NCBI RefSeq assembly: GCF_003334335.1
Contig: NZ_QOWQ01000055.1
DNA: 19,253 nt
Direction: 5' to 3' (one strand)
Origin: Escherichia coli
GTDB taxonomy: Bacteria; Pseudomonadota; Gammaproteobacteria; Enterobacterales; Enterobacteriaceae
Shown: one piece after another, positions 8,522 through 19,177 of the stretch
Position numbering within the stretch: the stretch's first letter is position 1
Layout of the letters: every line of letters begins with the position of its first letter
Notes under the pieces: model-generated
Told to the model about the DNA's origin: nothing
The model's input: the letters and a program-made list of their open reading frames with translations, nothing else
Database searches by the model: none
Made by a program: the position numbers and the translations under genes

Positions 8522-9436
8522 ATGGCTGGTTTAAGGAATAACAACAACACACAGAATGCACAGTGGGCTGATTATGTGGGTGACATTCTTCGGGGGGCTC
8601 AGCCGATAAACCAGCTAGTACCTCAGCACCCTTATCTTAACGACGTCCCACTCATTGATGAGTTAAGGCATCAGAACACTCATCATGTTATTCCCTTGAC
8701 ACTTGATGTTGCAAAAAAAATACTCAGCCCAATAACATCATTTGATTACATTCATTTTATCACTACACATCCTTCAGGTATAAAAGATACACTCGCTTGG
8801 TTAGTTAACGCGGGTAAATTAATGACTGAGTTTGATGACAATGGGAAAATTATATTTAACCTTAATGCCTTAAAGTATACAAAAGCAAGTTACTTTGAAA
8901 TACTTGGAGAGAAATATATAAAAATCACAACATCCAGCCCCTGGCTTTTAGAAAAGCTCGGTAAATATATTTTCTCTTCACGAGCGCCTCAAGTTCTGGA
9001 ACTCGCTATTGGCTGGCGAGGAGCTTTATCTGAATCAATAAAAGGAGTTAAGTTCTGTATCTGGTTTTCAGTAGCCTGGAGAACCATAGAATTTATTATG
9101 AGTTCAGAGCGAGATCTGGTTAATTTTCTTGGCGATTTTTCAATGGATGTGGCCAAAGCAGTTATAGCCGGTGGTGTTGCAACCGCTATTGGAAGTCTGG
9201 CTTCTTTTGCCTGTGTTAGCTTTGGCTTTCCAGTAATTCTTGTCGGAGGAGCAATTTTACTGACAGGGATAGTGTGTACAGTTGTTTTAAATGAAATCGA
9301 TGCTCAATGCCATTTATCAGAAAAATTAAAATATGCAATTAGAGATGGACTAAAACGGCAACAGGAACTTGATAAATGGAAAAGGGAAAACATGACTCCA
9401 TTTATGTATGTTCTTAACACTCCACCCGTGATATGA
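8522..9436 (+). CDS. Hcp-linked 304-aa protein with soluble N-terminal domain and C-terminal small-xxx-small (glycine-zipper-like) transmembrane hairpin; likely the intact form of the yafU-type gene
   Basis: GGAGAG RBS 6 nt before ATG at 8522 (the track's 8507 start is a TTG). C-terminal hydrophobic segments VIAGGVATAIGSLASFACVSFGFPVILVGGAILLTGIVCTVVL. Position between hcp and ykfM matches where yafU sits in K-12 (from memory). Confidence 0.7.
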   Translation: MAGLRNNNNTQNAQWADYVGDILRGAQPINQLVPQHPYLNDVPLIDELRHQNTHHVIPLTLDVAKKILSPITSFDYIHFITTHPSGIKDTLAWLVNAGKLMTEFDDNGKIIFNLNALKYTKASYFEILGEKYIKITTSSPWLLEKLGKYIFSSRAPQVLELAIGWRGALSESIKGVKFCIWFSVAWRTIEFIMSSERDLVNFLGDFSMDVAKAVIAGGVATAIGSLASFACVSFGFPVILVGGAILLTGIVCTVVLNEIDAQCHLSEKLKYAIRDGLKRQQELDKWKRENMTPFMYVLNTPPVI

Positions 9437-10847: not shown

Positions 10848-11109
10848 AATTGGACACTCCCTCGCCTGTCATAATGATTAGAATATTTAGCATTGATAAC
10901 GGACTCTAATTATATACCTCACTTAAATAATAACAAACAAAATCAATTTGAAATATACATTCATTTAATCAATATAAATTTATTCTCTAGAAATATATTT
11001 AAGCTGAATGGTTCGATATCATTATTGAATTTTAATGAATGAGACAACAAGCGAGAATCACGCACCTACGCCAGAGTAAAATCATTGAACAGAGAAATGG
11101 TGGAATTCA

Positions 11110-11146
11110 AATACAAAAAAACCGCAAAATTAAAAATCTTGCGGCT
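11110..11146 (-). terminator. Rho-independent terminator downstream of aspV
   Basis: Minus-strand hairpin ccgcaagatttttaattttgcgg followed by a U-run (plus-strand A-run 11114-11121), ~30 nt after the tRNA 3' end. Confidence 0.6.
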
Positions 11147-11174
11147 CTCTGAACTCATTTTCATGAGTGAATAG

Positions 11175-11251
11175 TGGCGGAACGGACGGGACTCGAACCC
11201 GCGACCCCCTGCGTGACAGGCAGGTATTCTAACCGACTGAACTACCGCTCC
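11175..11251 (-). tRNA. aspV: tRNA-Asp (GUC), 77 nt with encoded CCA
   Basis: Reverse complement reads GGAGCGGTAGTTCAGTCGGTTAGAATACCTGCCTGTCACGCAGGGGGTCGCGGGTTCGAGTCCCGTCCGTTCCGCCA, the E. coli tRNA-Asp sequence as I recall it, with anticodon GUC in the loop. Confidence 0.95.
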
Positions 11252-11279
11252 GCGTTGTGTTCCGTTGGGAACGAGGCGA

Positions 11280-11308
11280 ATATTACGGATTGCCTCGACC
11301 TTCGTCAA
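11280..11308 (-). promoter_or_regulatory. Probable sigma70 promoter of aspV (TTGACG-17 nt-TAATAT) with GC-rich discriminator
   Basis: Minus strand: -35 TTGACG (11303-11308), 17-nt spacer, -10 TAATAT (11280-11285), then gcgcctc; AT-rich UP-like tract upstream; the tRNA starts ~28 nt downstream. Confidence 0.55.
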
Positions 11309-11383
11309 CGGTTTTTCTCATCTTTTGAATCGTTTGCTGCAAAAATCGCCCAAGTCGCTATTTTTAGCGCCTTTCACAGGTAT

Positions 11384-12115
11384 TTATGCTCGCCAGAGGC
11401 AACTTCCGCCTTTCTTCTGCACCAGATCGAGACGGGCTTCATGAGCTGCAATCTCTTCATCTGTCGCAAAAACAACGCGTAACTTACTTGCCTGACGTAC
11501 AATGCGCTGAATTGTTGCTTCACCTTGTTGCTGTTGTGTCTCTCCTTCCATCGCAAAAGCCATCGACGTTTGACCACCGGTCATCGCCAGATAAACTTCC
11601 GCAAGGATCTGGGCATCGAGTAATGCCCCGTGCAGCGTTCGTTTACTGTTATCTATTTCGTAGCGAGCACATAACGCATCGAGGCTGTTGCGCTTACCGG
11701 GAAACATTTTCCTCGCCACCGCAAGGCTATCGGTGACCTTACAGAAAGTATTGGTCTTCGGAATATCGCGCTTAAGCAACGAAAACTCGTAGTCCATAAA
11801 GCCGATATCGAACGCTGCGTTATGGATCACCAACTCCGCGCCGCGAATATAGTCCATGAACTCATCGGCTACTTCGGCAAACGTGGGCTTATCGAGCAAA
11901 AATTCATCGGCAATACCATGTACGCCAAAGGCTTCCGGATCCACCAGCCGATCGGGTTTGAGATAAACATGGAAGTTATTGCCCGTCAGGCGACGGTTCA
12001 CCACTTCAACGGCACCAATCTCAATGATCTTGTGGCCTTCATAGTGCGCACCAATCTGGTTCATACCGGTGGTTTCGGTATCGAGAACGATCTGGCGTGT
12101 AATTGCAGTGCTCAT
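11384..12115 (-). CDS. dnaQ: DNA polymerase III epsilon subunit (3'-5' proofreading exonuclease)
   Basis: Translation [20 protein letters not shown]...GGSCLWRA recognised as DnaQ (243 aa). An in-frame ATG three codons upstream (12122-12124) is an alternative start. Confidence 0.95.
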
Positions 12116-12179
12116 AGCGGTCATTTATGTCAGACTTGTCGTTTTACAGTTCGATTCAATTACAGGAAGTCTACCAGAG
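12116..12179. promoter_or_regulatory. Divergent dnaQ / rnhA promoter region
   Basis: 64-bp gap between divergent start codons; a possible rnhA promoter is TTGTCG-17 nt-ATTACA. Known from the literature to carry overlapping divergent promoters; individual sites not confidently resolved here. Confidence 0.45.
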
Positions 12180-12647
12180 ATGCTTAAACAGGTAGAAATT
12201 TTCACCGATGGTTCGTGTCTGGGCAATCCAGGACCTGGGGGTTACGGCGCTATTTTACGCTATCGCGGACGCGAGAAAACCTTTAGCGCTGGCTACACCC
12301 GCACCACCAACAACCGTATGGAGTTGATGGCCGCTATTGTCGCGCTGGAGGCGTTAAAAGAACATTGCGAAGTCATTTTGAGTACCGACAGCCAGTATGT
12401 CCGCCAGGGTATCACCCAGTGGATCCATAACTGGAAAAAACGTGGCTGGAAAACCGCAGACAAAAAACCAGTAAAAAATGTCGATCTCTGGCAACGTCTT
12501 GATGCTGCATTGGGGCAGCATCAAATCAAATGGGAATGGGTTAAAGGCCATGCCGGACACCCGGAAAACGAACGCTGTGATGAACTGGCTCGTGCCGCGG
12601 CGATGAATCCCACACTGGAAGATACAGGCTACCAAGTTGAAGTTTAA
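12180..12647 (+). CDS. rnhA: Ribonuclease HI
   Basis: [28 protein letters not shown]...TGYQVEV, 155 aa. The track's upstream-extended ORF from 12069 is rejected in favour of the ATG at 12180. Confidence 0.95.
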
Positions 12648-13366
12648 GCCTGTGGTTTACGACATTGCCGGGTGGCTCCAACCGCCTGGCGAATTCGTGG
12701 CTTGTTTTTACTCTGTTTCATCGGATTTAGCGTTAAAGGAATAGTCCGTTTCCGGGCAACAATAAGTTGTAAGCAACCAAGCGCAGGAATATGCGCATTC
12801 AATAGTTTTCCTCCGTGTTTGTTCCACGGGAGAACGTGGAAACGGCTGGCGTGTAGCACTTCAAAATTCAACAAAGAGAGCCAGTCCAGCTGCCGCATCA
12901 GAGTAAACATCCGGCTGTTATAGGGCGAGGTTTTGCGCAATACCGGCACAAGTTTGCGTAATCCCATAAAACTGATGGGATTGAAGCCACTAATGACCAG
13001 CCAGCCATCATCAATCAATACCCGATCGGCTTCACGCAATAAACGATGCGGATCGGTGCACCACGGCAATGTATGTGCCAGTAGACAAACATCAACGGAT
13101 TTATCGGCAAAAGGAAGATGAAGTGGGTCCGCCTGTACCTGGACGGGCATTCCTTGCGCAGAAACATTCACTTGATGAGAAACCGCGCACGCTTCGCAAT
13201 TGATTTCTGCGCTTAAATTGCCAATCTTAAGCAGATGAAAACCATACATTTTAGTGAACCACGGGTTGAGCTGGCGCTCCAGCGCCTTGCGATAAAGCTT
13301 TCCCCAGGGCAAATCGCCCCAGCAATCAGGAGCCACGACAGTTTGAGGGACTCTTGCCGGTTTCAT
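12644..13366 (-). CDS. yafS: Putative SAM-dependent methyltransferase YafS
   Basis: Translation [37 protein letters not shown]... recognised as YafS (240 aa; the track ORF adds 6 upstream codons). 3' end overlaps rnhA by 4 bp in convergent orientation. Confidence 0.85.
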
Positions 13367-13396
13367 CACAACCTTCCGTTTCACACTGAGAGGTAA

Positions 13397-14155
<759 letters not shown>

Positions 14156-14226
14156 TAAAACTTTCTTGTCATCGGCTCCGTTCGCCGTTATGATCGGTCG
14201 TCTTTTAAGCAACTATTGACACACAC

Positions 14227-15585
14227 ATGAAGGCAAAAGCGATATTACTCGCCTCTGTCCTGCTCGTGGGTTGCCAGAGTACCGGCAACGTTCAACAGCA
14301 CGCACAGAGCCTTTCTGCAGCTGGTCAAGGGGAAGCAGCAAAGTTTACAAGTCAGGCACGATGGATGGACGATGGGACGTCTATCGCGCCAGATGGTGAC
14401 TTGTGGGCTTTCATTGGCGACGAGCTAAAGATGGGAATTCCGGAAAATGACCGGATTCGCGAACAGAAACAGAAATATTTACGCAATAAGAGCTATCTCC
14501 ACGATGTAACTTTACGGGCAGAGCCGTATATGTACTGGATAGCAGGGCAAGTTAAAAAACGTAACATGCCTATGGAACTGGTACTACTACCCATAGTGGA
14601 GAGCGCTTTTGATCCTCACGCAACGTCTGGCGCCAATGCCGCAGGCATCTGGCAGATCATTCCGAGCACGGGGCGCAATTATGGTTTGAAACAGACCCGC
14701 AATTATGACGCGCGTCGCGATGTTGTTGCTTCAACAACTGCCGCGCTGAATATGATGCAGCGTCTGAACAAAATGTTTGACGGCGACTGGCTTCTGACCG
14801 TAGCGGCTTATAACAGCGGCGAAGGTCGGGTCATGAAGGCAATTAAAACGAACAAAGCGCGTGGGAAATCCACGGACTTCTGGTCGTTACCGTTGCCGCA
14901 GGAAACGAAGCAGTACGTGCCTAAAATGCTGGCATTGAGTGATATTCTCAAAAACAGCAAGCGTTATGGCGTACGTCTGCCAACGACCGATGAAAGCCGT
15001 GCTCTGGCGCGTGTGCACCTGAGCAGCCCGGTTGAAATGGCGAAGGTAGCAGATATGGCGGGGATTTCCGTCAGCAAGCTGAAGACATTCAACGCTGGCG
15101 TAAAAGGCTCCACGCTGGGCGCAAGTGGCCCGCAGTACGTGATGGTGCCAAAGAAGCATGCAGATCAACTGCGTGAATCTCTGGCTTCAGGCGAAATTGC
15201 TGCTGTACAGTCGACGCTGGTTGCCGACAATACGCCGCTTAACAGCCGTGTTTACACCGTACGCTCTGGCGACACGCTTTCAAGTATCGCTTCACGTCTC
15301 GGCGTAAGCACCAAAGATTTGCAGCAGTGGAACAAACTGCGCGGATCTAAGCTGAAGCCAGGCCAAAGTTTGACGATTGGTGCAGGCAGTAGCGCACAGC
15401 GACTGGCAAACAACAGCGATAGCATTACGTATCGTGTGCGCAAAGGCGATTCGCTTTCAAGCATTGCTAAACGCCACGGCGTGAACATCAAAGATGTGAT
15501 GCGCTGGAACAGCGACACTGCGAATCTGCAACCAGGCGATAAGCTGACGTTGTTTGTGAAAAACAACAACATGCCAGATTCCTGA
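14227..15585 (+). CDS. mltD: Membrane-bound lytic murein transglycosylase D (lipoprotein with C-terminal LysM repeats)
   Basis: 452 aa; lipoprotein signal MKAKAILLASVLLVGCQS; two LysM-like repeats near the C-terminus (YTVRSGDTLSSIASRLGV..., YRVRKGDSLSSIAKRHGV...). Confidence 0.93.
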   Translation: MKAKAILLASVLLVGCQSTGNVQQHAQSLSAAGQGEAAKFTSQARWMDDGTSIAPDGDLWAFIGDELKMGIPENDRIREQKQKYLRNKSYLHDVTLRAEPYMYWIAGQVKKRNMPMELVLLPIVESAFDPHATSGANAAGIWQIIPSTGRNYGLKQTRNYDARRDVVASTTAALNMMQRLNKMFDGDWLLTVAAYNSGEGRVMKAIKTNKARGKSTDFWSLPLPQETKQYVPKMLALSDILKNSKRYGVRLPTTDESRALARVHLSSPVEMAKVADMAGISVSKLKTFNAGVKGSTLGASGPQYVMVPKKHADQLRESLASGEIAAVQSTLVADNTPLNSRVYTVRSGDTLSSIASRLGVSTKDLQQWNKLRGSKLKPGQSLTIGAGSSAQRLANNSDSITYRVRKGDSLSSIAKRHGVNIKDVMRWNSDTANLQPGDKLTLFVKNNNMPDS

Positions 15586-15603
15586 CAAACCAGATAATAA
15601 AAA

Positions 15604-15632
15604 GGCACCGATTCCCCCGGTGCCTTTTTTAT
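15604..15632. terminator. Bidirectional rho-independent terminator between convergent mltD and yafE
   Basis: Stem ggcaccg (15604-15610) / cggtgcc (15618-15624), loop attcccc, T-run 15625-15630; an A-run precedes it, giving a U-run for the minus-strand transcript. Confidence 0.7.
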
Positions 15633-16256
15633 TTATGCCGCTTTATGTGCATCTACCATGATGATATCACTGGTGAAAAAGCCATCATTCTGCAAGGCAA
15701 AATACGTTCTCACCTCTGTCGATGCGCTCTGTTGGTAAATGCGAATAGCGTCTACTAACGCTTCTGGCGTACGCATTCTCGCGACCCATGAAGAAAATTC
15801 CAGCGGTAACTTATCTGTAATTAAATTATCAACTATCAGATTGGCTTCATTGATTAACGTCAACCACTCACCGCTGGCGTAGTTTCGTACGTGAGAGGTA
15901 TCGCGTAATGCTTCTACCGTCTGTAACCAGATGTCGCGCACTGGGTGACCCGGAGACATTACGTCCATCACAATCAGCCTACCGCCAGGTTTCAATATCC
16001 TATTCACTTCTCGCAGTGCTGCACCAACATCATGCCAGTGATGGGCAGAATAACGGCTGATAACAATATCAAATGCGTTATCGGCAAATGGCAGACTTTC
16101 GGCATATCCCTGGCGGGTGGTGATATTTTTCAGTTGCCGGGCTTCGGCAGCTTGTGCCACGACATCCAGCATGTGGGCAGATAAGTCATACGCCACCACC
16201 GCGCTCACGTTTTGCGCAGCGCCAAACGTTGGTCTGCCCTGTGGCAGACCTGACAT
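15633..16256 (-). CDS. yafE: Putative class I SAM-dependent methyltransferase YafE (207 aa; motif I not evident)
   Basis: Contains post-I (VVAYDLSAHML), motif II (LPFADNAFDIVIS) and motif III (ILKPGGRLIV) signatures; starts 3 nt after the yafD stop. Confidence 0.85.
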   Translation of the reverse strand: MSGLPQGRPTFGAAQNVSAVVAYDLSAHMLDVVAQAAEARQLKNITTRQGYAESLPFADNAFDIVISRYSAHHWHDVGAALREVNRILKPGGRLIVMDVMSPGHPVRDIWLQTVEALRDTSHVRNYASGEWLTLINEANLIVDNLITDKLPLEFSSWVARMRTPEALVDAIRIYQQSASTEVRTYFALQNDGFFTSDIIMVDAHKAA

Positions 16257-16259
16257 ACC

Positions 16260-17300
<1,041 letters not shown>

Positions 17301-18215
17301 ATGAAAGCCACGTCGGAAGAACTCGCCATTTTTGTTTCGGTCGTCGAAAGCGGCAGCTTTAGCCGGGCAGCGGAACAATTAGGGCAAGCAAACTCAGCGG
17401 TAAGCCGGGCGGTGAAAAAGCTGGAGATGAAACTTGGCGTTAGCCTGCTTAATCGGACCACGCGACAACTTAGCCTGACGGAAGAAGGCGAGCGTTATTT
17501 TCGTCGCGTACAGTCAATTTTGCAGGAGATGGCAGCGGCAGAATCAGAAATTATGGAGACGCGTAATACACCGCGTGGACTGTTACGGATCGATGCCGCA
17601 ACTCCAGTGGTGCTGCACTTTCTGATGCCGTTAATTAAGCCTTTCCGTGAACGCTATCCGGAAGTCACTTTGTCGCTAGTCTCCTCCGAAACGATTATTA
17701 ATTTGATCGAAAGAAAAGTGGATGTCGCGATACGCGCTGGTACGTTAACGGATTCCAGCTTACGTGCCAGGCCGTTATTTAACAGTTATCGAAAAATTAT
17801 CGCCTCCCCCGATTATATTTCCCGCTACGGGAAGCCAGAAACGATCGACGATTTAAAGCAACATATTTGCCTGGGATTCACTGAACCCGCTTCCCTCAAT
17901 ACCTGGCCGATAGCCCGTAGCGATGGACAATTACATGAGGTGAAGTACGGTTTGTCATCCAATAGTGGGGAAACACTGAAACAGCTTTGCCTGAGTGGCA
18001 ACGGGATTGCGTGTTTGTCCGACTACATGATCGACAAAGAAATCGCTCGCGGAGAATTGGTGGAGTTAATGGCAGATAAAGTGTTGCCAGTGGAAATGCC
18101 ATTCAGTGCCGTCTATTACAGCGACCGTGCGGTAAGTACGCGCATCCGGGCTTTTATCGATTTCCTTAGCGAGCATGTAAAAACAGCTCCCGGAGGAGCT
18201 GTCAGAGAGGCTTAA
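17301..18215 (+). CDS. yafC: LysR-family transcriptional regulator YafC
   Basis: 304 aa; N-terminal helix-turn-helix ([23 protein letters not shown]); AGGAG RBS. Confidence 0.9.
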
Positions 18216-19015
18216 TCCCATTCAGGAGCCAGACCTTCCGGGCTAACCAGGCGGTCGTTGCAATCCAGTGCGGCGATCGCTTTTTTATCTTCGGCATCAA
18301 GCTGTAAATTTTGTGCCTTAAGATTACTTTCCAGGTTTTTACGTTTAGTAGAAGAAGGAATTACTGAGTAACCTTCCCCCATAGCCCACGCCAGAATCAC
18401 TTGTGCCGGAGTCGCATTGTGTTTAGCTGCGATACGAGCAATAACCTCATCTTTCAGGGCCTTACCATACGCCAGCGTCATATAGGAAGTAATATGGATG
18501 CCGTGCTGTTTAGCCCAGGCAACCACTTTACGGTTTTGCAGATAAGGAGAGAGTTCAATCTGGTTAGTAGCGATGTTTTCAGCACCAACAGCAGCAATCG
18601 CTTTTTCCATCAACGGGATCGTGAAGTTGGAAATACCGATCTCACGCGTCAGCCCTTGTTTTTTGGCTTCCAGCAGCGCCTGCATAAACTCTTCAACAGA
18701 GACTTCATCGTTTGGTGACGGCCAGTGGATTAGCGTCAGATCAACATAATCGGTACGCAATTTTTGCAGGCTCTCTTTCAGACTTGGGATCAATTTGTCT
18801 TTGCTGAGATTTTCAATCCAGATTTTAGTGGTGATGTAGAGTTCATGACGTGGCACGCCACTTTCTGCAATCGCCTGACCTACTGCGGCTTCGTTATCAT
18901 AGATTTGTGCGGTATCAATTGCGCGATAACCAAGTTCAAGCGCCGTTATCACAGATGAAATAACAACGTCGTCTTTCAGACGGAAAGTACCTAAACCAAA
19001 TGCAGGGATAGCCAT
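18212..19015 (-). CDS. dkgB: 2,5-diketo-D-gluconate reductase B (aldo-keto reductase)
   Basis: 267 aa; aldo-keto reductase motifs; 3' end overlaps yafC by 4 bp in convergent orientation. Confidence 0.92.
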
Positions 19016-19136
19016 AATATGCCTCTTTTAATGCTATTTTCGTTAACTGAGGTGATTATGGGCTTCAGACTGTTGAGGAAAAAGAGCGTAAAATGCAGAG
19101 GATTTTTGCGATTCTGGCAATAATAGATATACAGAC

Positions 19137-19165
19137 GAAAAAAAACCTCGAGCGTTAACTCGAGG
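19137..19165 (-). terminator. Rho-independent terminator downstream of aspU (end of the rRNA operon in K-12)
   Basis: Minus-strand hairpin cctcgag-ttaacg-ctcgagg (plus 19146-19165) followed by a U-run (plus-strand A-run ending 19145). Confidence 0.65.
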
Positions 19166-19177
19166 CTTCTTAATAAG

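Follow-up and report, generated by a model that had tools for sequence, protein, structure and literature searches.

Two 4-bp convergent gene overlaps in Escherichia coli, rnhA/yafS and yafC/dkgB, and predicted terminators within the partner genes

Genes, junctions and gene ends

The window analyzed here is a stretch of 19,253 nucleotides of Escherichia coli DNA, and from position 9080 to its end at 19253 it matches E. coli K-12 MG1655 with 100% identity. The gene order of its core is tRNA-Asp (aspV), dnaQ(-), rnhA(+), yafS(-), gloB(+), mltD(+), yafE(-), yafD(-), yafC(+), dkgB(-) and tRNA-Asp (aspU). Two convergent pairs of this core, rnhA/yafS and yafC/dkgB, meet without a spacer; the third, mltD/yafE, serves as the contrast case for terminator sites embedded in a neighboring gene. 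The features discussed below are listed in Table 1.

Table 1. Genes, stop-codon tetramers and terminator sites at the three convergent junctions (positions in the window)
Feature	Position	Strand	Basis
rnhA, RNase HI, 155 aa	12180..12647	+	translation; identity to PDB 1rch/2rn2, residues 1-155; RefSeq
TTAA with both stops of rnhA/yafS, 4-bp CDS overlap	12644-12647		sequence
yafS, class I SAM-dependent methyltransferase, 240 aa	12644..13366	-	ORF list; translation; RefSeq
rnhA candidate terminator, inside the last ~21 yafS codons	12659..12709	+	fold z = -2.7; dG -18.3
mltD/yafE bidirectional terminator, fills the 47-bp spacer	15599..15629	both	dG -17.4 / -17.8
yafC, LysR-type regulator, 304 aa	17301..18215	+	ORF list; translation; RefSeq
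dkgB intrinsic terminator (predicted), within yafC codons 293-300	18178..18203	-	fold; conservation
TTAA with both stops of yafC/dkgB, 4-bp CDS overlap	18212-18215		sequence
dkgB, aldo-keto reductase, 267 aa	18212..19015	-	ORF list; translation; RefSeq
yafC candidate terminator, inside dkgB codons ~243-256	18249..18290	+	terminator scan; dG -20.5

In both overlapping pairs, two protein-coding genes run towards each other on opposite strands and meet at their 3' ends, as seen from the open reading frames and from the annotation. In the case of rnhA/yafS, the rnhA stop codon TAA occupies 12645-12647 and is preceded by GTT (Val155), and the yafS stop TAA is read from the complement of 12646..12644 and is preceded by GCT (Ala240) at 12649..12647. 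In the case of yafC/dkgB, the yafC stop TAA lies at 18213-18215 and that of dkgB is read on the opposite strand at 18214..18212, preceded by GAT (Asp267). Within each pair, two bases are common to both stop codons, each stop uses the third base of the partner's final sense codon, and the coding sequences, stops included, overlap by 4 bp. The original prediction of a 4-bp convergent overlap in both pairs is confirmed by sequence, translation and RefSeq coordinates, and the stop codons are indeed interlocked on opposite strands with zero intergenic DNA. Given this arrangement, it was also right to expect that any transcript covering a full coding sequence must enter the partner in antisense. For both rnhA/yafS and yafC/dkgB, overlapping transcripts are listed from 50% or more of 58 RNA-seq sets (PMC12288877, Table 1).

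The ends of the four genes were examined, since revised start or stop assignments could have removed the overlap. A stop is the first in-frame stop codon and is not open to re-annotation in the way that a start is, so the stop assignments are secure. PGAP/RefSeq annotation gives identical ends in strain 720632 and in MG1655 (both records inspected), where the coordinates are 229167-229970 for dkgB, 229967-230881 for yafC, 234816-235538 for yafS and 235535-236002 for rnhA. The rnhA product is the crystallized 155-residue RNase HI from end to end, the DkgB C-terminus APEWD is common to the solved homologue 3up8, and the ends of YafS and YafC orthologues from ~25 loci fall within a few codons of one place, the final 13 YafC residues forming a hypervariable tail. 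The ends hold against the RNase HI structures, the DkgB APEWD terminus and the two annotations. An annotation artefact, in which one stop per pair is misplaced and the true genes do not overlap, is therefore almost certainly not the explanation. It was rejected on the first in-frame stops, the match of RNase HI to residue 155 and the conserved DkgB end; the same PGAP ends in strain 720632 and MG1655 and the presence of the region at ≥97% identity in 5425 of 5426 E. coli genomes also speak against it, and no evidence in its favor was found.

Frequency and comparative history of the 4-bp overlap

Convergent overlaps have a modal length of 4 bp, with the tetramers TTAA, TTAG, CTAA and CTAG, and 58 convergent overlaps have been counted in E. 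coli (Lillo & Krakauer 2007, PMC2174442). The two junctions studied here equally have opposite strands, facing 3' ends and one tetramer with both stops, and from relative to relative the tetramer changes (TTAA, TTAG or CTAA) but the -4 geometry (a negative gap being an overlap) is kept. Nothing essential differs from the known 4-bp convergent overlaps, of which rnhA/yafS and yafC/dkgB are two named instances. Fukuda et al. 2003, Johnson & Chisholm 2004 and Kingsford et al. 2007 are said to treat such overlaps as well.

The base rate of the -4 state was sampled from two 50-kb stretches of MG1655 picked blind (1.00-1.05 and 3.00-3.05 Mb). Exactly -4 was found for 3 of 16 convergent pairs (zapC/ycbX, yccX/tusE and yqfG/yqfH), and the same 100 kb contain one further convergent pair at -38. 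In the 8-kb core of the window, two of three convergent pairs are at -4, for which the chance is ~0.06-0.1 at a base rate of ~0.15-0.2. The 24 kb of MG1655 at 1.006-1.030 Mb likewise contain two -4 pairs. Two such pairs in an 8-kb core are not remarkable in a genome scan.

The prevalence of this one length can be understood from the stop codons themselves. A gene ending in NNY-TAA or NNY-TAG gives TAR on the opposite strand in one frame, and a convergent open reading frame drifting into its neighbor in that frame halts exactly 4 bp in. On account of this stop-codon complementarity, the -4 state is best described as a passive attractor and not as a designed element. The finding as first written accordingly carries little weight, being a textbook effect of stop-codon complementarity in a compact genome. 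Both overlaps are real, ordinary, and already annotated and catalogued.

To follow the junctions across relatives, 34 loci were gathered. The window and its twin (L001) aside, the gap was determined for rnhA/yafS at 22 loci and for yafC/dkgB at 16. The scripted rnhA/yafS gap was -4 in 16 of the 22 loci, 0 in three, +2 in one, and -41 and -47 in two; the value of -47, from locus L016, is approximate, and an overlap of 19 bp was derived there by hand. A gap of -4 is also present in L017 (Enterobacter EA-1; TTAA, read by eye) and in L033. More distant Enterobacterales-like contigs gave -4, -19, -19 and +83. The rnhA/yafS tetramer is TTAA in Escherichia, Citrobacter, Kosakonia and Franconibacter, TTAG in Salmonella, and CTAA in Enterobacter asburiae and Lelliottia WAP21, and the -4 junction occurs with differing YafS tail lengths. 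Drift of the tetramer with constant geometry is the behavior expected of a passive attractor. Judging from these loci, the tight packing of rnhA and yafS is ancient in Enterobacterales.

The history of the other junction is shorter. All seven Escherichia loci have yafC/dkgB at -4 (one, L003, with TTAG and with GAC, not GAT, as the final dkgB codon), and no other genus examined does; at ten loci from other Enterobacteriaceae genera the two genes are 11-38 nt apart. Salmonella has no dkgB at this site, and tRNA-Asp abuts yafC there. The overlap probably arose in the Escherichia lineage, when the distance from the dkgB stop to the hairpin downstream of it fell from ~34 nt to 9 nt; after this loss of ~20-30 nt, yafC would have extended to the built-in TAA opposite dkgB GAT-TAA. 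The description of both junctions as a conserved core arrangement thus holds within E. coli, where the rnhA-yafS segment is present in 5425 and the yafC/dkgB counterpart in 5420 of 5426 complete genomes, and it holds for rnhA/yafS across Enterobacterales. It does not hold for the yafC/dkgB overlap, which is confined to Escherichia.

Predicted terminators within the partner genes

Folding of the 100 nt past each stop placed a hairpin followed by a U-tract 9-35 nt beyond the stops of rnhA, yafC and dkgB, and these three candidate terminators sit in the final 12-25 codons of the partner gene. In a uniform scan, which required a hairpin closing beside at least 5 T in 8, their dG values were -18.3 (rnhA), -20.5 (yafC) and -14.4 kcal/mol (dkgB), similar to the -17.4 and -17.8 of the mltD/yafE terminator on its two strands. 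The background of terminator-like sites over 200 kb of MG1655, counting genuine terminators, is 0.32 per kb of strand, so that ~0.022 would be expected per 70 nt after a stop; they were found at three of four gene ends. When the partner's codons were synonymously recoded, the native score was equaled or exceeded in 2.8% (rnhA), 0.3% (yafC) and 4.5% (dkgB) of 1000 trials. The same control downstream of yafS gave no signal and resembled the null. The absence of intergenic space is not the absence of a terminator, as terminators can occupy the last codons of a neighbor. The claim that the overlaps leave no room for terminators is consequently contradicted by the predicted sites for three of the four genes inside the partner's codons; yafS alone is without one. 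These sites would keep the antisense reach of the three genes short, at ~60-110 nt, with a predicted mutual overlap of ~110 nt for yafC/dkgB and of at least 60 nt for rnhA/yafS.

Terminators of this kind have been described. Of 116 overlapping genes, 23 have a Rho-independent terminator inside the convergent partner, and in 2 of 58 pairs this applies to both genes (PMC2174442). The hairpins and U-tracts predicted here for rnhA, yafC and dkgB likewise lie in the partner's coding sequence, and yafC/dkgB would join the rarer class of Lillo & Krakauer in which both partners contain one. Among five other overlapping pairs of MG1655, a site at dG ≤ -13 was found for 2 of 10 genes; embedded terminators are therefore not universal, in agreement with the published ~20%. 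The nearby mltD/yafE terminator is of the classical symmetric bidirectional type. The TTAA junctions differ from it in having two separate unidirectional hairpins flanking the stops and not one common hairpin. The predicted 3' ends of yafC and dkgB overlap, as do those of the SEnd-seq class of Ju et al. 2019 described in the preprint of Wang et al. 2022. A scan of 11000-19253 against Rfam (E ≤ 1) returned only the two tRNA-Asp genes, and thus no known RNA at either junction; no entry for mapped 3' ends of rnhA, yafS, yafC or dkgB was found in the transcript-mapping supplements searched.

Of the three sites, that of dkgB is the best supported, chiefly by its conservation. The hairpin, ACAGCUCC-UCCG-GGAGCUGU (18202..18183), is a perfect 8-bp, G+C-rich stem with a 4-nt loop that begins 9 nt past the stop and is followed by a U-run down to 18179. 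It is kept in Escherichia, Citrobacter, Enterobacter asburiae, both Lelliottia loci, Pseudenterobacter, Franconibacter and three further lineages. In the alignment, 98.8% of cells are paired, four sequences have C-G in place of U-A at one pair, and the loop is variable (UCCG, UGCG, UUCG, UUUG or UCCU). The dkgB mRNA would end at this hairpin and U-run, 9 nt beyond the stop. A ribosome terminating at a stop codon only 9 nt from a hairpin might hinder its folding.

The same bases also encode the C-terminal tail of YafC, which is probably dispensable. Across 120 cluster representatives, the body of YafC shares 84-99% identity with the E. coli protein, but the conserved ...FLSEH(V/I)K is followed by over 45 different tails. 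Most informative is that the frame in which YafC crosses the hairpin depends on the T-tract: five T give ...KTAPGGAV... and four give ...KQLPKEL followed by a stop. Both frames are found inside Lelliottia, separated by this 1-nt difference. In Salmonella, where dkgB is missing from this site, the hairpin is degraded. The structure is thus conserved independently of coding, with a compensatory pair, a variable loop, two reading frames and loss together with dkgB. We conclude from this comparison that the hairpin, as a putative terminator, would be the selected element and the YafC tail its incidental translation. Translation of the dkgB terminator as a YafC tail, in two frames across genera, goes beyond what Lillo & Krakauer described, and no description of a terminator doubling as a frame-switching YafC tail was found in the literature.

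In the case of yafC, a 14-bp stem with four G-U pairs (18249-18282) is joined to a run of six T (18281-18286), and the mRNA would end at this hairpin and U6, 33 nt into dkgB. The site is thus a G+C-rich hairpin with a U-run directly behind it; its distance from the stop is +33 in Escherichia and ranges from +49 to +69 in other genera. Most of the stem does not vary, with 86% of cells paired, one compensatory cell and little covariation. It encodes a conserved DkgB segment of 13 residues, which accounts for the near-invariance, and because of this coding constraint conservation alone is no proof of an RNA role. Kosakonia no longer has the T-run, but there yafC has an intergenic hairpin and T-run of its own; in Franconibacter, the T-run has been lost with no obvious replacement terminator. 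The yafC site is a candidate, less secure than that of dkgB, and is favored by the recoding test and by the Kosakonia case.

The rnhA site has a non-canonical geometry. Its strong 11-bp stem (12665-12692) lies 12 nt from the run of five T (12705-12709), and it qualifies only as a composite hairpin spanning 12659-12704. RNAalifold found no consensus hairpin in 21 sequences downstream of rnhA (energy about 0). When the pairs of the E. coli hairpin were counted over the 21-locus alignment, covariation and pairing showed no excess, 98 of 500 shuffles reaching the observed percentage of paired cells. The structure thus shows no conservation independent of coding, and conservation of an rnhA terminator across the family was dropped on both results. 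A terminator for rnhA is probable in Escherichia only; there the mRNA probably ends at the composite hairpin and U5, ~60 nt into yafS.

Termination, antisense transcription and the yafS-rnhA-dnaQ layout

Taken as a whole, the account we consider likely is that both junctions are ordinary overlaps of the commonest class, held at -4 by a passive attractor, with terminators placed inside the 3' codons of the partner. The gene that lacks such a site is yafS. No intrinsic-terminator-like site follows yafS in any of the 23 loci scanned, in all genera, and none is present on the yafS strand before dnaQ in the window. The C/G ratio, used as a proxy for Rho sites, is weakly suggestive for yafS read-through (1.0-1.36). 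Untranslated antisense RNA is normally stopped by Rho, which is the default expectation downstream of yafS. Transcripts of yafS would presumably be halted by Rho or by collision within the untranslated stretch antisense to rnhA.

The case of yafS bears on how the other three sites are to be read. The hairpins with U-runs could be by-products of coding, with real termination by Rho or by head-on collision of RNA polymerases. This is unlikely, but it has several points in its favor: the rnhA hairpin is without covariation, the yafC hairpin is invariant in keeping with the conserved DkgB residues that it encodes, yafS has no terminator at all, so that a factor- or collision-dependent route must exist at its junction with rnhA, and yafS read-through RNA is mildly richer in C than in G over its first ~180 nt. 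Against it stand the sites at three of four gene ends where 0.022 were expected per end, a codon choice that favors the structures at the 0.3-4.5% level in recoding, and the dkgB hairpin, which persists in two frames, shows a compensatory change and decays with the loss of dkgB. None of the four genes is presumably highly expressed. Collision termination, the "overlapping bidirectional terminator" of Ju et al. 2019 as related in the preprint of Wang et al. 2022 (10.1101/2022.10.23.513370), works best for highly expressed pairs, which argues against collision here; the collision model itself makes use of a hairpin in the overlap, a point on the side of the by-product reading. Embedded terminators, best supported at dkgB, are the preferred reading. 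Both dkgB-yafC and yafS-rnhA are named among the 165 convergent excludons of MG1655 by ExcludonFinder (Sanmartin et al. 2025, NAR, PMC12288877), a catalogue without per-pair anatomy in which terminators are embedded in the neighbor's transcription unit in 146 of 165 cases. More generally, 276 of 370 convergent E. coli operons (75%) overlap at their 3' ends, by a mean of 286 nt (Conway et al., PMC4161252). Since three quarters of convergent operons overlap, overlap alone implies no regulation. The antisense interference that had been proposed is possible at both pairs, but it is not specific to them, and any regulatory effect of the overlapping 3' ends is probably small.

A stronger version holds that the junctions are selected excludons, in which complementary 3' ends let the partners repress each other through RNase III cleavage or transcriptional interference, making expression of rnhA and yafS, and of yafC and dkgB, mutually exclusive. 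We regard this as quite improbable. The detection of both pairs in at least 50% of the 58 RNA-seq sets is in keeping with it, as are the lack of a spacer between rnhA and yafS in nearly all Enterobacterales loci examined and the embedded terminators, which force an overlap upon transcription of either gene; a function for such overlaps is argued in PMC12288877. It is weakened by the restriction of the yafC/dkgB overlap to Escherichia, by the 75% of convergent operons that overlap regardless (PMC4161252), by the lack of an evident functional link between the paired genes, by the failure of p19 dsRNA capture to validate convergent excludons, and by the passive explanation of the -4 state from stop-codon complementarity. 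The missing yafS terminator allows another reading, slightly more doubtful still, in which yafS, rnhA and dnaQ form a noncontiguous operon: yafS transcripts would cross rnhA in antisense and continue into dnaQ in sense, a relic of a yafS-rnhA-dnaQ operon in which rnhA alone was inverted. The rnhA/yafS junction would then be the scar of that single-gene inversion, and the lack of both a spacer and a terminator after yafS from the outset would be accounted for. The layout has the gene order of a noncontiguous operon and no terminator after the first gene, and yafS and dnaQ flanking an opposite rnhA fit the architecture of Saenz-Lahoya et al. 2019 as outlined in PMC12288877. The three homologues of Thioalkalivibrio all point the same way and are closely packed, in the order yafS, rnhA, dnaQ, and every Enterobacterales locus has only rnhA reversed, with yafS and dnaQ on either side of it still pointing in one direction; the absence of terminator-like sites after yafS in 23 loci and before dnaQ agrees with read-through. 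This outgroup is a single genus, however, and Rho would normally stop such untranslated antisense RNA. Promoters of its own have reportedly been found for dnaQ by Maki et al. 1983 and Nomura et al. 1985, which would count against such an operon. The arrangement is also missing from the published list of three E. coli cases by ExcludonFinder (PMC12288877).

We therefore retain ordinary -4 overlaps with embedded terminators as the reading of both junctions, and the yafS-rnhA-dnaQ layout as a plausible candidate for read-through coupling. If such an operon were real, it would be a conserved one that couples a methyltransferase to the proofreading subunit of Pol III and opposes RNase HI expression. 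What is mildly new here is the dkgB terminator doubling as a frame-switching YafC tail, together with the idea of an rnhA inversion. That an embedded terminator can set the C-terminal tail of a protein, as suggested for YafC, is relevant to C-terminal variability and to the design of deletions: an in-frame deletion of the yafC end would also delete the predicted dkgB terminator, and deletion of the dkgB end or of the yafS end would remove the candidate terminator of yafC or of rnhA, respectively.

The mltD/yafE spacer and the orientation of rnhA

The spacer between the convergent genes mltD and yafE is 47 bp long (window 15586-15632) and is occupied by a symmetric hairpin. This hairpin is a textbook bidirectional terminator, and mltD/yafE, the third convergent pair of the window, provides a useful contrast with the two convergent pairs that have no spacer, rnhA/yafS and yafC/dkgB.

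The Thioalkalivibrio homologues of yafS, rnhA and dnaQ all point the same way (comparison loci L018, 6917-9102, and L019, 3417-5491), and the yafS-like ORF overlaps the start of rnhA by 8 bp. The co-directional arrangement of these homologues suggests that the enterobacterial layout may have arisen by inversion of rnhA alone. The rnhA gene of Enterobacter sp. EA-1 (L017, ~7800-7845) carries an apparent 2-nt deletion, seen as TGGGA--GGGT in alignment A1, which is either a frameshift or an assembly error.

Within gloB, the MG1655 annotation places the short antisense gene ykfO, and gloB-ykfO is listed as a divergent excludon by ExcludonFinder (PMC12288877). The window position of ykfO (~13862-13894) was calculated from its MG1655 coordinates, using the offset between the two sequences in their 100%-identical alignment.

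Variation in the YafC tail

The C-terminal tail of YafC is hypervariable. Among 120 cluster representatives that share 84-99% identity with E. coli YafC, more than 45 different tails were found, ranging in length from 4 to 18 residues, and most of them belong to one of two frame classes (KTAP.GAV or KQ.P.E/G..). The interval from tRNA-Asp(aspU) to yafC contains no dkgB in Salmonella enterica, subsp. arizonae included (L008, 440-640; L021, 8915-9435). At both loci the aspU tRNA and its terminator directly adjoin yafC. The hairpin encoded at the end of yafC, which in E. coli is the predicted dkgB terminator, has decayed there.

The tRNA-Asp genes and the Rhs/T6SS remnant

The core segment of the window is flanked by a near-identical pair of tRNA-Asp genes, aspV and aspU. 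The island attached at aspV differs by strain, being CP4-like in strain 720632 and an Rhs/T6SS remnant in the window. This remnant is the ~8.8-kb segment at window 313-9079, which is missing from MG1655 and is bordered by DNA 100% identical to K-12. Its RHS core protein is broken into two adjacent minus-strand ORFs. Of the 5426 E. coli genomes searched, 161 carry the island with at least 80% of the query covered.

Positions of the features discussed (window coordinates unless stated)
Feature	Position	Strand	Remarks
RHS core protein, second piece	1969-3951	-	model positions 747-1261
RHS core protein, first piece	3984-6041	-	model positions 49-721
TssA/VasL-like ORF	6530-7972		weak match
tRNA-Asp aspV	11178-11251	-	
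ykfO	MG1655 234288-234320 (L027, the MG1655 stretch, 29288-29320)	antisense to gloB	10 codons
mltD/yafE bidirectional terminator	15599-15629		A5 and T5 on flanks
YafC C-terminal tail	18174-18212		YafC residues 292-304
tRNA-Asp aspU	19181-19253	-
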